From contig CALQYT010000001.1 of assembly GCA_943348815.1 (NCBI GenBank), forward strand, positions 158,994 through 207,289: 48,296 nt of DNA, in the 5' to 3' direction. The translations under genes were made by a program, and so were the position numbers. Of this stretch, positions 1 through 42,150 are shown in pieces; the stretch's first letter is position 1, and every line of letters starts with the position of its first letter. The notes beneath the pieces were generated by a model, which saw only the letters and a program-made list of their open reading frames with translations, searched no databases and had not been told where the DNA came from. The DNA is from Candidatus Nomurabacteria bacterium (GTDB lineage Bacteria; Patescibacteriota; Minisyncoccia; Phycocordibacterales; SBAW01).

Positions 1-357
1 CTTAAGACAGCTCTCGCACGTGCTAACGCCAAGCGGGTGGTTATGGTCGAGGATCTCAATGACGATACGCTCGGGGAAGTGATGCGATTTAGTTTAGAAA
101 ATTTTCCCAATGCAAACCCGGAAGTAAAACTAGAAGGCTTTCCGTACGGCTATCAAAAAATAAAATCAGTGCCGTTTAAAGCAACCTTACGCTCGGACAC
201 CTTTGAGGAATTGGCGACGCAGTGTCTTTACTTAATGGACGTTGAGGTGGCCAAAGAAAATATTGCCCATATGAGCGACTTTCTAAAAACTCGAATCGCT
301 ACTCCCGAATTTACGATCAACCAGGAGATAGCGGTGTACGAAAAGTCCCAGGCCTAG
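1..357 (+). CDS. hypothetical protein, 5' end outside window
   Basis: Frame 1 is open from base 1 to TAG 355-357 (first ATG at 37). No recognisable motif. Confidence 0.4.
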   Translation, partial: LKTALARANAKRVVMVEDLNDDTLGEVMRFSLENFPNANPEVKLEGFPYGYQKIKSVPFKATLRSDTFEELATQCLYLMDVEVAKENIAHMSDFLKTRIATPEFTINQEIAVYEKSQA

Positions 358-12362: not shown

Positions 12363-13556
12363 ATGGCAAACTTTGAACGAACTAAGCCGCACCTCAACGT
12401 CGGCACCATTGGGCACGTCGACCACGGCAAGACCACGCTCACCGCGGCTATCACGCACGTGTTGGACATGGCTAAAGGGCAAGGTTACGGCGCCCGTGTT
12501 GAAGGCGTCGACAAGATCGACAACGCTCCGGAGGAAAAGGCACGCGGTATTACCATTGCACTCCACCACTCGGAGTACGAAACGCCGAATCGCCACTACG
12601 CGCACATCGACGCGCCGGGCCACGCCGACTACATCAAGAACATGATCACCGGTGCCGCTCAAATGGACGGCGCAATCCTCGTGGTTGCGGCAACCGACGG
12701 CGCCATGCCGCAGACGCGCGAGCACATTCTCCTTGCTCGCCAAGTGGGCGTACCCAAGATCGTTGTCTTCCTCAACAAAGTAGACATGGTTGATGACAAA
12801 GACCTCGTCGACCTCGTTGAAGAGGAAGTTAAAGAACTTCTCAAGAAGCAGGGCTACACCGACTCGCCGGTTATCCGCGGCTCGGGTCTCAAAGCACTCG
12901 AAGCTAAGTCGCTCGACGATGAGTGGGCCAAGAAGGTGCTTGAGCTTGCAAACACGCTCGACAGCTATATCCCAGAGCCAAAACGCGAGCTCGACAAACC
13001 CTTCCTCATGCCGGTTGAAGACATCTTCTCGATCGAAGGTCGCGGCACCGTGGTGACCGGCCGCATCGAACGCGGTGTCATTAAAGTAGGTGAGGAAATC
13101 GAGATCATCGGTCTCCAGCCGACGACCAAGACGACCGTTACCGGTATCGAAATGTTTAACAAGCAGCTTGAGACCGGTCAGGCCGGCGACAACGCAGGTA
13201 TTCTCCTCCGCGGCACTGCCAAGGATGATATCCACCGCGGTCAGGTGCTTGCGAAACCAGGTTCGGTAACCCCGCACACCGAGTTTGAGGCCGAGGTGTA
13301 TGTCCTCACCAAGGACGAGGGTGGCCGTCACACGCCGTTCTTTACCGGCTACAAACCGCAGTTCTATGTCCGCACAACCGACGTGACCGGCGAGGTAACA
13401 CTCCCAACCGGTACCGAGATGGTTATGCCGGGCGATACGATCACCTTTAAGGTCAAACTCGTCGCCCCCGTGGCGATGGAAAACCAGACCCGCTTTGCAG
13501 TCCGCGAAGGCGGCAAGACGGTAGGTGCCGGAGTGGTTACAAAAATTGTTGCGTAA
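12363..13556 (+). CDS. tuf: translation elongation factor Tu
   Basis: [15 protein letters not shown] and [21 protein letters not shown] motifs. 397 aa. Confidence 0.97.
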
Positions 13557-13679: not shown

Positions 13680-14051
13680 ATGCCAACTGAAACTAAAAAG
13701 AAAACAGCTCCCAAAAGGGCAAAGAAACCTGCCGAACCAGCAGCCCCTCAACGACTTCGTATAAAGGTGCGCGCGTACGAGCACAAAGTGCTCGATGCGT
13801 CGGTGAAGCAGATTCTCGACACCGCATTGCGCTATGATGCAAAAGTTGCGGGCCCGATTCCTCTGCCGACCGAAATTAAAAAGTATACGGTCAACCGCTC
13901 GACGTTTATCTACAAAGATGCACGCGAGCAGTTTGAGATGCGGGTCCACAAGCGCGTGATCGACATCCTCGATCCGTCTCCGAAAGTCATCGAAGCTCTG
14001 ACGAACCTCTCGCTCCCTTCTGGCGTGACGATCGACGTCAAGATGGCGTAA
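13680..14051 (+). CDS. rpsJ: 30S ribosomal protein S10 with Lys-rich N-terminal extension
   Basis: [15 protein letters not shown] and GPIPLPT motifs. Start at ATG 13680 within ORF 13662-14051. Confidence 0.9.
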
Positions 14052-14065
14052 AGAAGATTTTAAAC

Positions 14066-14094
14066 AAAAAGCTCCTCGCAAGAGGGGCTTTTTG
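14066..14094. terminator. bidirectional intrinsic terminator after rpsJ
   Basis: AAAAAGCTCCTC-GCAA-GAGGGGCTTTTT. Confidence 0.65.
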
Positions 14095-14123
14095 TTGCAC
14101 AAATTTTAAACGCACTTCATACT
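14095..14123 (+). promoter_or_regulatory. sigma70-like promoter TTGCAC-17-CATACT
   Basis: Hexamers at 14095-14100 and 14118-14123, directly upstream of the GC-rich non-coding element. Confidence 0.4.
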
Positions 14124-14129
14124 AAAAAG

Positions 14130-14460
14130 GCGAGGGGACTCTCTCGGTCTTGCCGCACGCACTGTGCGCGCGGTGGGTTCTGCCGAGAAAAGCCTTTGTT
14201 GGTTGGCATCCACAACTGCTGGCTGGCCGGGGCGCGCAGTGCGCTCCGGCTGGTCGAAAAATTCACCCGACACCCAATGAACTTGGAGGACGTGTCGTGT
14301 ACGATGGTTTTAGTGCGGACCAAGGTCCCTTGGCCTCGCGCGCAACAGCGCGCTTTTGGGCAAATCTTGACTATTGGTTCGAGCGGTTGGGTGGGGGTGG
14401 TCACGCCCACGCTTCCCGAACTGCGCGAATGATCTATCGGGTTCATCGCAATTATTAAAA
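14130..14460 (+). ncRNA. candidate structured non-coding RNA, family unknown, strand tentative
   Basis: About 330 nt at about 60% GC (hand count). No protein-like ORF. At least six local hairpins. Bounded by a promoter and a strong terminator. Confidence 0.4.
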
Positions 14461-14484
14461 GCCTGACCTCTGTCAGGCTTTTTT
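14461..14484 (+). terminator. intrinsic terminator
   Basis: GCCTGAC-CTCT-GTCAGGC followed by T6. Confidence 0.7.
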
Positions 14485-14493
14485 GTTTAAAAT

Positions 14494-14522
14494 TTGCATA
14501 AAACCAGACACTCGGGTATAGT
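14494..14522 (+). promoter_or_regulatory. sigma70-like promoter TTGCAT-17-TATAGT for rplC operon
   Basis: Hexamers at 14494-14499 and 14517-14522, 58 nt upstream of rplC. Confidence 0.45.
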
Positions 14523-14580
14523 CCCTGGGACGCCTTAAATAGCGTTGATCCGCGTCGGCCTACGCCGACCTACAGACAAC

Positions 14581-15222
14581 ATGACGAAATTAATCCTTGG
14601 AACCAAGGGCAAGATGCTTACGGTATTTACCGACGACGGTCGGGCCTTTGCCGCAACCGTGGTTAACGCTGCTCCCAACATGGTGACGCAAATCAAAACG
14701 AAAGAAAAAGAGGGCTACGCTGCCATGCAAGTGGGTGCACTCGAGACAAAGCCGGTGCGTATTAACAAAGCGCAGCTTGGTCACACCAAAGGTAAAGCAC
14801 TGCGATTTTTCCGCGAGTTGCGTCCGCGCGCCGCGATGGTGGGTGGCGAAGTTGCCACTAATTTTCCTGAACTTGGTTCGACGATCGATGTTTCGACTTT
14901 TACCGTCGGAGACAAAGTAACCGTATCGGCAGTTTCGAAAGGCAAAGGCTTCCAGGGCGTGGTTAAGCGCCATGGCTTCCACGGTGGTCCGCGCTCGCAC
15001 GGTCAAAAGCACTCTGAGCGCTCGCCCGGCTCTATCGGCGGCTCGGGTGGTCGCGCCGGTGGTCGTGTGGCCAAAGGTATGCGCATGGCCGGCCGTATGG
15101 GCCAAGATCGTGTGACGGTGCGCAACCTTGCAGTCTTGCAAGTACTCCCCGAAACCAACGAGCTTGTGATCGCCGGCGCAATACCCGGTCGTCGCGGCAC
15201 GCTGGTAGAAATCCGCGGATAA
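14581..15222 (+). CDS. rplC: 50S ribosomal protein L3
   Basis: FQGVVKRHGFHGGPRSHG motif. Start at ATG 14581 (MTKLILGTKG) within ORF 14545-15222. Confidence 0.93.
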   Translation: MTKLILGTKGKMLTVFTDDGRAFAATVVNAAPNMVTQIKTKEKEGYAAMQVGALETKPVRINKAQLGHTKGKALRFFRELRPRAAMVGGEVATNFPELGSTIDVSTFTVGDKVTVSAVSKGKGFQGVVKRHGFHGGPRSHGQKHSERSPGSIGGSGGRAGGRVAKGMRMAGRMGQDRVTVRNLAVLQVLPETNELVIAGAIPGRRGTLVEIRG

Positions 15223-16158: not shown

Positions 16159-17004
16159 ATGAAATCTTACCGACCCTACACTAAGTCCCGCCGCCACATG
16201 ACCACCGTGAGCTTTGACTCGCTGACGGTAGCCGAGCCGCACAAAGCGCTGACCGGCGGTTTTCGCCGCGGTTCGGGCCGCAACAACGCGGGCCGCATTT
16301 CGGTGCGCCACAAAGGCGGCGGTCACAAGCGCCTCTATAGGGATATCGACTTTGGCTACGGCAAACGCGTTGCCGCACGCGTCGAGACGGTTGAGTACGA
16401 TCCGAACCGCTCGGGCTTTATTGGCCTCTTGCTCTATCGCGATGGCGAGCGCCGCTACGCGCTGTTGCCTCGTTCGGTAAAAGTTGGTTCAACGATCGAA
16501 ACCTCCGAGACCGCACCGGCAACACCGGGCAATCGCATGCCGCTTAAAAACATGCCGATCGGCGCGTTTATTTACAACGTCGAACTCAAGCCGGGGCAGG
16601 GGGGCAAACTGGGCCGCGCCGCCGGTACGCACATCGAGCTTATTGCGCGCGACCAGGGCTATGCCGATCTTAAGATGCCGAGTTCGGAAATTCGCAAAGT
16701 ACTCGAAACTTGCTGGGCAACTTTGGGCGAAGTCTCCAACGATGAGCACCACCTGCGCACGATAGGCAAAGCCGGCCGCAGCCGTTGGTTGGGTATCCGC
16801 CCGACCGTCCGCGGTACGGCGATGAACCCGGTCGACCACCCACACGGCGGCGGCGAGGGTCGCCAAGGTCGTGGTTTGCGCCGCGCCAAGAGCCTCTGGG
16901 GTAAGCCAACGGGCAAGGGTCAGAAGACGCGCCGCCCGAAAAAATACAGCAATTACCTCATTGTTTCGCGCCGCAAGGTTGGCAAACGTAACAAAATAAT
17001 GTAG
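16159..17004 (+). CDS. rplB: 50S ribosomal protein L2
   Basis: [14 protein letters not shown] and [14 protein letters not shown] motifs. Confidence 0.95.
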
Positions 17005-36908: not shown

Positions 36909-37318
36909 TGGTGGAGATGGGGGGAGTTGAACCCCCGTGCAATGGATAACGGCACAAGCATCTACGAAGCGTAGTTTGCTTTATATCTTTAACCCAACTC
37001 GTAAGAAACAAACGAAATCAAGTTGAGTTGCAGCTTTGAGTTTTAGGTGCCGCTACTAAGCGAGTAGCGGCTGCCGAGTTTGGCTATATAACACTCTGAC
37101 CTTACCCGCCAAACCGGTAAGAGAGTGTCCCCTTAGGCCTTAGCGTAGGCGAAAGAGAAGGCGTCAGCCGTAAAATACGGAGACGTAACTGATTTTGCAG
37201 TTATGGTTTGATGAATTTTGACCCTTCTTCGCACAAGGCTACGAAGGGCGAAGGAAGATCCATCACTCCTGCATCGCGCAGTGCGCGCGTCAGTCCATTG
37301 TCTAAGCCTGTCATCCCC
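36909..37318 (-). ncRNA. ssrA: transfer-messenger RNA
   Basis: 5' GGGGAUGACAGGCUUAGAC. 3' GCACGGGGGUUCAACUCCCCCCAUCUCCACCA (T-arm, acceptor with G3-U70, encoded CCA). Adjacent to smpB. Confidence 0.9.
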
Positions 37319-37408: not shown

Positions 37409-37852
37409 TTATTCTCTTTTCAAAGTTCTATCCATCTCGCGCTTGGTGTCGCGCTCCTTTAGTGTAGCGCGTTTATCGTACTTTTTCTTGCCGCGCGCAA
37501 CGCCTAAAAGTAGCTTGAGATTTCGCCCTTTATTATACACCTTTAAGGGCACTATTGTCAAGCCCTTCTGCCCCTCGTATTGGCTAAGCGCCATAAGCTC
37601 TTTTTTAGTGAGGAGCAGCTTGCGGGTACGGTCGGCATCGTAACCTTGGGGGGTGTTGGCCGGCTGATAGGGCGGGATATGCACCCCCACCAAGTAAGCC
37701 TCACCACCTCTGATGATTGCGTGAGACCCTTCAAGCTTGCCTTGCCCGGCGCGGAGGCTTTTTACCTCCGGCCCCAGCAGCTCCATACCCGCCTCGTATT
37801 CCTCGAGGATCTCGTAGTTGAGCCGTGCCTTTTTGTTTTCTACCAGCGACAT
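37409..37852 (-). CDS. smpB: SsrA-binding protein SmpB
   Basis: NKKARLNYEILEEYEAGMELLGPEVKSLR motif and a C-terminal basic tail. Confidence 0.93.
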   Translation of the reverse strand: MSLVENKKARLNYEILEEYEAGMELLGPEVKSLRAGQGKLEGSHAIIRGGEAYLVGVHIPPYQPANTPQGYDADRTRKLLLTKKELMALSQYEGQKGLTIVPLKVYNKGRNLKLLLGVARGKKKYDKRATLKERDTKREMDRTLKRE

Positions 37853-42077: not shown

Positions 42078-42149
42078 GCGCGAGTAGCTCAGTGGTAGAG
42101 CGTCCGTCTTATACACGGATGGTCGTAGGTTCGATCCCTACCTCGCGCA
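42078..42149 (+). tRNA. tRNA-Ile, anticodon UAU (CCA not encoded)
   Basis: Cloverleaf: acceptor GCGCGAG/CTCGCGC, D arm GCTC-AGTGGTA-GAGC, anticodon arm TCCGT-CTTATAC-ACGGA, T arm GTAGG-TTCGATC-CCTAC, discriminator A. Confidence 0.88.
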
Positions 42150-42150
42150 C

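Follow-up and report, generated by a model that had tools for sequence, protein, structure and literature searches.

A candidate insulated small RNA gene in the rpsJ–rplC spacer of an uncultivated Patescibacteria bacterium

The S10 operon leader of Escherichia coli sits upstream of rpsJ and brings about attenuation mediated by ribosomal protein L4. Large GC-rich structured non-coding RNAs such as OLE, GOLLD, HEARO, ROOL, and raiA occupy long GC-rich spacers in genomes whose spacers are AT-rich, and it is broad conservation together with covariation that defines these families. The element described here lies in the spacer between rpsJ and rplC in a 48,296-nucleotide stretch of DNA (the window) from an uncultivated bacterium of the Patescibacteria (Candidate Phyla Radiation, CPR), of the Paceibacteria/Kaiserbacteria type. 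It consists of a GC-rich core (14125-14456) followed by a terminator, which together make up a predicted plus-strand transcript of ~360 nt (14129-14490). Non-coding RNAs of the CPR are almost unexplored, and the genomes of these bacteria are tiny and hold little spare DNA.

Like the E. coli S10 leader, the element is structured, ends in a terminator, and is located in the S10/spc cluster upstream of rplC-rplD; it differs in lying downstream of rpsJ, in being cut off from rplC, and in being absent from close relatives. With OLE, GOLLD, HEARO, ROOL, and raiA it has in common a long spacer that stands out in GC content, a multi-helix fold, and a promoter and terminator of its own, but it matches none of their Rfam models at E ≤ 10 and is known from a single population. 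Its size falls within the range of RNase P RNA and transfer-messenger RNA (tmRNA), and it is GC-rich and multi-branched as they are. In contrast to RNase P RNA, tmRNA, signal recognition particle (SRP) RNA, and 6S RNA, it gives no match to these families on either strand at E ≤ 10, and the tmRNA gene is located elsewhere. The initial annotation, made by eye, could assign the element to none of these four RNAs and to no riboswitch class, and the Rfam scan bears this out. At gathering thresholds the spacer has no Rfam match, and at E ≤ 10 the region 13950-14650 returns just generic terminator-type matches (14029-14124 and 14420-14512), with a single 12.6-bit fragment (E = 7.4) in the core. Rfam matches across the whole window are confined to the tmRNA (36909-37318, minus strand) and two tRNAs. 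Full-text literature searches turned up no account of CPR non-coding RNAs at this locus. The element belongs to no described family and is new in that sense.

The best explanation, to which we give an even chance, is an insulated small RNA (sRNA) gene on the plus strand that is lineage-specific and possibly derived from a 160-nt unit present in the clade. RNA polymerase would start near 14129 from a sigma-70-type promoter at 14095-14123, and the transcript of ~360 nt would be halted at an intrinsic terminator (14457-14490). Since rpsJ is predicted to end at its own terminator and rplC to have a separate promoter and leader, the unit would be insulated on both sides. The RNA is predicted to fold into a 5′ multi-branch domain, with a 12-bp closing helix and three internal hairpins, one of them of 15 bp, and to continue through a GC hairpin and a loosely paired 3′ region to the terminator. 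Its role would most likely be that of a trans-acting regulatory or protein-binding RNA. The structured RNA proposed in the initial annotation is thereby retained in part: the plus-strand unit is unusually folded, and an RNA gene is the leading reading rather than an established one. An insulated, strongly folded 360-nt unit within the most conserved gene cluster of the genome would make a promising lineage-specific regulatory RNA candidate.

The core has a GC content of 59%, while the flanks and the spacers of the genome range from 26 to 45%, in agreement with the hand count of about 60% with AT-rich flanks in the initial annotation. With the terminator included, the plus strand folds at −166.8 to −167.6 kcal/mol (z = −5.1 versus shuffles), which is 32 kcal/mol better than the minus strand (−135.8 kcal/mol, z = −3.5). 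The core alone reaches z = −3.6, beyond all 62 control windows (−0.69 ± 1.24; minimum −2.8 without spacer overlap), the controls being 32 other 332-nt windows of the same genome stretch on both strands. The structure therefore exceeds the genomic background and is strand-specific, as expected of an sRNA gene.

The 5′ multi-branch domain (14128-14336, plus strand) is closed by the 12-bp helix 14128-14131/14333-14336 and 14133-14140/14324-14331, which has a pair probability of 0.97 on the plus strand versus 0.46 on the minus strand in the partition function. Within this domain are predicted hairpin H1 (14142-14188; 7 + 8 + 4 bp, three G·U pairs in the middle helix, P = 0.91-0.99), hairpin H2 (14221-14255; 15 bp with four G·U pairs, P = 0.99), and hairpin H3 (14265-14300; 6 bp enclosing 4 bp, inverted repeat I4, no U-tract). 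In the H2 region the minus strand can form only 9 bp. The hairpin GCGCGC-AACA-GCGCGC (14338-14353; P = 0.99, inverted repeat I2) follows, and beyond it the pairing of the 3′ region (14355-14456) is poorly defined, with P = 0.9 reached only by 14383-14388/14419-14424. On the plus strand the closing helix, both H1 helices, H2, the H3 stem, the GC hairpin, and the terminator all have P ≥ 0.97; on the minus strand this level is attained by the 14226-14250 helices and the terminator, the remainder lying mostly between 0.1 and 0.9. At least nine G·U pairs occur in the high-probability plus-strand helices. The initial annotation had left the strand undecided while noting that promoter and terminator favor the plus strand; fold energy, G·U pairs, and pair probabilities agree with them, and the plus strand is favored as firmly as the sequence allows. 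The local helices it had listed are present in the model with three amendments: 14226-14250 is the center of the 15-bp helix 14221-14255, the hairpin at 14320-14333 is displaced in the minimum free energy fold by the 12-bp long-range helix with 14128-14140, and the helix at 14391-14410 is poorly defined (P = 0.5-0.6).

The signals that frame the element on the same strand are (i) the rpsJ terminator, (ii) a promoter-like site, (iii) the terminator of the element, and (iv) the promoter of the rplC operon. The rpsJ terminator (14065-14093) is usable in both directions and consists of an upstream A-tract, a 7-bp stem GCTCCTC/GAGGGGC (14071-14077/14082-14088) with a GCAA loop, and T5 at 14089-14093. 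It was not listed by the consensus promoter/terminator scan, most likely because A/T pairs lengthen the counted stem. Direct reading, inverted repeat I1, and a fit to the terminator part of covariance model R1 of the relatives (E = 4e-4) nevertheless support the bidirectional terminator that had been placed after rpsJ. The promoter-like site TTGCAC-17-CATACT, identified by direct reading, is located exactly where it had been annotated (14095-14123), with a predicted transcription start at about 14129 ± 2. It agrees with the E. coli consensus at 3/6 and 4/6 positions (7/12) and is below the threshold of the scan, so it is unlisted. It has a TTGCAY −35 and an nATAnT −10 element in common with the conserved rplC promoter. 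The pattern TTGnnn-16..18-nATAnT is found at 19 sites of the gene-rich plus strand, where ~6 are expected, a threefold enrichment, and these sites include the rpsJ, rplC, and rplO promoters.

Intrinsic terminator B (14457-14490, plus strand), found by the scan and as inverted repeat I3, has a perfect 11-bp stem (14457-14482) with a CTCT loop, followed by T6 and then GTTT, and corresponds to the strong terminator with T6 described at the end of the candidate RNA. Four nucleotides further on begins the rplC operon promoter TTGCAT-17-TATAGT (14494-14522, plus strand), which the scan also finds at the position given in the initial annotation and which is kept in 11 related loci. The claim of an independent promoter-to-terminator unit on the plus strand is thus supported in silico, since the element has its own promoter and terminator on one strand and is set apart from rplC by the conserved promoter and leader.

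The rplC promoter is followed by a conserved 5′ leader (14523-14580, plus strand) of two hairpins and then CnAnAGACAAC ahead of the ATG, as seen in alignment A5 and in the consensus fold, where five of the eight pairs show compensatory changes. The promoter (TTGC[A/G]TAAA ... GTATAGT) and a leader of 60-170 nt are kept in 11 loci, including those of Adlerbacteria and Minisyncoccia: the window (14493-14580), the related loci L001 (2866-3003), L165 (2392-2503), and L175 (1352-1454), and further L167, L168, L171, L176, L178, L180, and L182. Hairpin 1 has the form ACGY...UAGCGUUG with a variable loop, hairpin 2 the form GUCCC...GGGAC with compensatory variants (GUCGGC/GCCGAC in the window), and an invariant CAAUAGACAAC lies between hairpin 2 and the AUG. 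The leader has no Rfam match and is a candidate autoregulatory leader of a ribosomal-protein operon.

The spacer measures 529 bp, from the end of rpsJ (13680-14051) to the start of rplC (14581-15222), close to the 530 bp given earlier. The accompanying premise that rpsJ and rplC are normally adjacent is untrue for this clade, in which spacers range from 12 to 1470 bp. In this part of the CPR, the rpsJ–rplC junction acts as a slot for cassettes and is hypervariable. The relatives compared are ~100 CPR loci obtained from L3-guided genome and metagenome scans and from look-ups of eleven L3 relatives; those at family level have S10 proteins 95-98% and L3 proteins 74-83% identical to those of the window. 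Short slots hold the terminator, promoter, and leader only (173 bp in L001, 120 bp in Adlerbacteria L182). Filled slots carry unrelated cassettes that are individually equipped with a promoter and a terminator (e.g., L165 759-2501, L167 925-2501, and L178 1161-2501), and the products include PaaX_M-domain proteins, DUF1761, and several unrelated orphan proteins of 60-130 amino acids. Some of the cassette genes differ from the housekeeping genes in having a clear GGAGG ribosome-binding site. An identical S10 protein is encoded on four further contigs, whose spacer is also identical and which show 0-1 differences from the window over 2-6 kb; an assembly artifact is rejected because these four independent assemblies agree with the window. 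A recombination breakpoint in the spacer is likewise rejected, all relatives having S10 and L3 identities within the ranges above and showing no mosaic.

In four related lineages the rpsJ terminator is immediately followed by a non-coding unit of 155-163 nt: L175 (1193-1351), L171 (1693-1855; also L173 and L174), L168 (1327-1489; also L169 and L170), and L178 (1735-1888). In L175 it is the sole spacer content, an architecture identical to that of the window, and in two lineages it precedes a DUF1761 gene. The unit has a TTGnnn-16/17-TATACT promoter, and its transcript starts with UAGAAAAAGG.GCUC. Its four stem-loops are P1, P2 (a hairpin with U7 behind it), P3 (formed by U7-GUUCGAC and GCCGAGCAAAGAAA), and the P4 terminator; the U-run that follows P2 pairs with a downstream AAAGAAA. 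Although only four sequences are distinct, pairing is kept in 96.6% of cells and both partners have changed in six pairs, a result above that of 494-499 out of 500 shuffles and of every slid control. Rfam scans of the window and of eight relatives, at gathering thresholds and at E ≤ 10, yielded no family for the element or for the unit, and the unit has no conserved open reading frame (ORF).

The element of the window resembles this unit in its slot after the rpsJ terminator, in its TTGnnn-16/17-(T/C)ATACT promoter, and in a transcript start of the form (UAG)AAAAAGG.G; the TATACT-TAG-AAAAAGG of the unit lies at the position matching the promoter and 5′ end in the window, and the first bases align as ATACT---AAAAAGGCG versus ATACTTAGAAAAAGGCG. 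In each RNA four stem-loops follow one another, the last being preceded by an A-rich linker (AAAGAAAUUC versus GAAAAAUUC), and H3 aligns to the second terminator of the unit. Under long-gap scoring, window positions 14124-14298 are weakly collinear with the whole L175 unit (p = 0.003), and the sum over four relatives gives z = 2.9 (p = 0.006). A covariance model of the 5′ half of the window element, run with filters off, aligns end to end with the L178 unit at its exact coordinates (E = 0.17, rank two in 41 kb), while the L168 and L175 units match weakly. The differences are that the window element is about twice as long, that it lacks the P2 hairpin with U7 and the U7/A-run helix P3, and that H3, which corresponds to the final terminator of the unit, is without a U-tract. 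Its 3′ half (14300-14456) has no similarity to the unit (p = 0.72).

On these comparisons the odds that the element is homologous to the unit are about even. If it is, two hairpins would have grown in the lineage of the window and the last terminator would have been deprived of its U-tract, and transcription would consequently continue for ~190 nt to the next terminator, ending at 14490. The element would then probably have originated as an enlarged derivative of the 155-163 nt unit of related Paceibacteria. A wider proposal, which we consider improbable, is that the rpsJ–rplC junction of Kaiserbacteria-like Paceibacteria hosts an undescribed sRNA family with a 160-nt core of four stem-loops, that the window carries a 360-nt member, and that these RNAs act on expression of the adjacent ribosomal-protein operons, for instance by serving as decoys or binding platforms for a ribosomal protein or through antisense regulation. 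Such a family would constitute a CPR-specific layer of ribosome-synthesis control. The cassette slot, the 160-nt unit in four lineages, and the two-hairpin rplC leader are testable leads, and the unit and the leader are more tractable than the element itself.

Three reading frames of 78-109 amino acids (aa) had been reported in the element, and all are confirmed. The 78-aa ORF (14196-14432, plus strand) has a TTG start and in-frame ATGs at 14277 and 14304; the 102-aa ORF (14150-14458, plus strand) also starts with TTG, is R/A/G/H/W-rich, and has the lowest codon score; the 109-aa ORF (14117-14446, minus strand) starts with ATG and is in exact antisense register with the 102-aa ORF. No minus-strand promoter for the 109-aa ORF was listed by the consensus scan. 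The 102- and 109-aa ORFs have no homologue among 5.8 billion proteins in word-indexed searches, the long frames have none among 1.84 billion representatives in an exhaustive HMMER search, and none of the frames has a significant or above-cut-off match in Pfam, PHROGs, NCBIfam, or the PDB sequences. The 78-aa ORF gives a weak match to Pfam DUF2824 (E = 0.006; 17 bits versus a cut-off of 25), and a weak match to an SDR chain (E = 0.38) was found among the PDB sequences; the two belong to different families, are mutually inconsistent, and are taken as chance. In a codon model trained on 23 confirmed genes, all four ORFs score below every one of the 157 leave-one-out coding windows, but the other hypothetical genes of the window score equally low. 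The earlier view that the ORFs are not protein-like agrees with the lack of homologues and with unconvincing starts and codon usage, although they are less clearly non-coding than had been claimed.

Several observations count against an sRNA gene related to the unit. The element is present in one population only, and its copies are identical, with no covariation among them. The core is absent from the ~100 CPR loci by nhmmer and by a covariance model of the 5′ half, and the slot in relatives mostly holds small protein genes. With regard to the unit, nhmmer finds no similarity between it and the window, standard Smith-Waterman alignment gives p = 0.08-0.7, the relatives' covariance model R1 matches just the two terminators in the window, and the P3 helix would cost 17 kcal/mol there (−19.6 versus −37.0 kcal/mol); in the long-gap test, z rose to 2.35 for one of the six unrelated segments used as controls. 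No target or partner emerged: the strongest RNAduplex prediction against 47 translation-start regions of the window had z = −2.6 and is at chance level. As for coding potential, three of the six frames are open for at least 100 codons, which occurs in 3% of dinucleotide shuffles and to which the palindromic hairpins probably contribute, and the 78-aa frame shows a weak GC periodicity (p = 0.013, uncorrected).

One rival explanation is a decaying cassette remnant, in which the GC-rich core is a leftover gene, or a unit fused to a gene fragment, and is possibly still transcribed without function. This reading, which we think unlikely though it comes nearest to the sRNA gene, draws on the hypervariability of a slot that is empty in L001 and L182 and otherwise filled with unrelated genes, on a core whose GC content equals that of the coding DNA of the genome, on three open frames and a weak 3-base periodicity as possible traces of coding, on the restriction of the element to one population, and on a 3′ half that is similar to nothing and poorly structured. 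Against it, none of the frames still resembles the cassette proteins found in relatives or any other protein sequence or family, and a plus-strand-specific excess of structure, with its 15-bp hairpin containing four G·U pairs and its 12-bp closing helix, is unexpected of a decayed gene, the control coding windows never falling under z = −2.8. Small CPR genomes, moreover, seldom retain 330 bp of useless GC-rich DNA. A pseudogene of a neighboring cassette is rejected, as tblastn of PaaX_M, DUF1761, and small hypothetical proteins against the spacer gave no match. Far less probable, and contradicted by what intervenes, is a cis-acting leader or attenuator of the rplC operon resembling the L4-controlled S10 leader of E. 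coli, in which transcription from 14095 would cross the structured region and the terminator at 14457 would be regulated. A structured RNA with a terminator does lie immediately upstream of rplC-rplD, and read-through would reach the operon. Nonetheless, a promoter and two-hairpin leader conserved in 11 loci stand between them, and because these are kept even in L001 and L182, where there is no insert, the element is not part of the rplC 5′ untranslated region; nor is it co-conserved with the operon. In addition, no fold of the ensemble disrupts the terminator stem (P = 0.98), and no Rfam leader matches.

An orphan small protein gene is disfavored, and we hold it to be less probable than the remnant and well above the attenuator. 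The transcript would be an mRNA for the 78-aa ORF or for a shorter form from ATG 14277 or 14304; the 102-aa ORF and the antisense 109-aa ORF are less likely candidates. The same promoter and terminator would suit an mRNA, small orphan proteins occupy this slot in relatives, and the 78-aa stop codon is 25 nt upstream of the terminator. The GC content at codon positions 1/2/3 of this frame (.60/.49/.72) resembles that of the genes of the genome (.59/.42/.64), and its codon score (−0.015) is like those of other hypothetical genes in the window. That score, however, is below those of all confirmed genes, and the signal is accounted for by a best-of-six-frames effect, given that 47% of best off-frames score higher. 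AlphaFold2 (AF2), run on the single sequence, models the 78-aa product as beta-alpha-beta-alpha-beta with a mean predicted local distance difference test (pLDDT) value of 56.6, versus 46.9 for the antisense 109-aa ORF; no homologue, family, or confident fold was found for an ORF product. Initiation also speaks against a protein: among 27 checked genes, 26 start with ATG or GTG and one with TTG, the predicted 5′ end has no start codon even though leaderless genes are common in this genome, and the 78-aa ORF has no convincing ribosome-binding site and a start buried in stable structure. A GGAGG at 14285 has its most favorable spacing to a GTG that is in a different frame, and is at chance level. 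If either the remnant or the orphan peptide gene is the correct explanation, the element is ordinary.

A mobile element or repeat was considered and rejected: the window holds no second copy of the element and no direct or tandem repeats, and the phage, plasmid, and viral collections gave no match to it. A 14-nt flanking inverted match (E = 0.25) corresponds to the A/T tracts of both terminators. The 67 viral matches to a degenerate pattern derived from the relatives' unit are pattern-only. Positions 14430-14451 (plus strand) are the reverse complement of rplB codons for AMNP(V/I)DH, agreeing at 17/20 positions with the rplB of the window itself (16819-16838, plus strand; E about 3) and at 21/22 with the rplB of an unrelated genome (L053); an antisense rplB fragment was rejected, the agreement being at chance level within the window.

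The best species-representative match of L3 in the genome scan is a Minisyncoccia metagenome-assembled genome (74%), and in the homologue search metagenomic L3 proteins labelled Kaiserbacteria, Adlerbacteria, or Paceibacterota are 80-84% identical. The gene tuf (12363-13556) precedes rpsJ, and rplC is followed by rplD, rplW, and rplB. The S10 protein has an N-terminal extension of ~23 residues (13680-13750), rich in K, P, and A, ahead of the conserved domain, and the S10 proteins of relatives (120-151 aa) have similar extensions.

Most genes of the window lack a Shine-Dalgarno sequence, examples being those at 13680 (rpsJ), 20946, 25086 (rplO), and 28331 (adk), and several start codons lie 3-10 nt past a −10 box (GATACT, TATAAT, or TATACT), which suggests that leaderless mRNAs are widespread in this genome. 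AGGAGG is present at a minority of genes, e.g., 22351-21920 (minus strand). In most bacteria AUA is decoded by a lysidine-modified CAU tRNA; the window encodes a tRNA-Ile with the anticodon UAU (42078-42150, plus strand), which may point to an unusual way of reading AUA codons in this lineage. The tmRNA gene, with the tag peptide AKSVTSPYFTADAFSFAYAKA, is located directly downstream of smpB (37409-37852, minus strand) on the same strand, and a TTGACA-18-TATAAT promoter-like site (~37561, minus strand) lies upstream of it, within the 3′ part of smpB.

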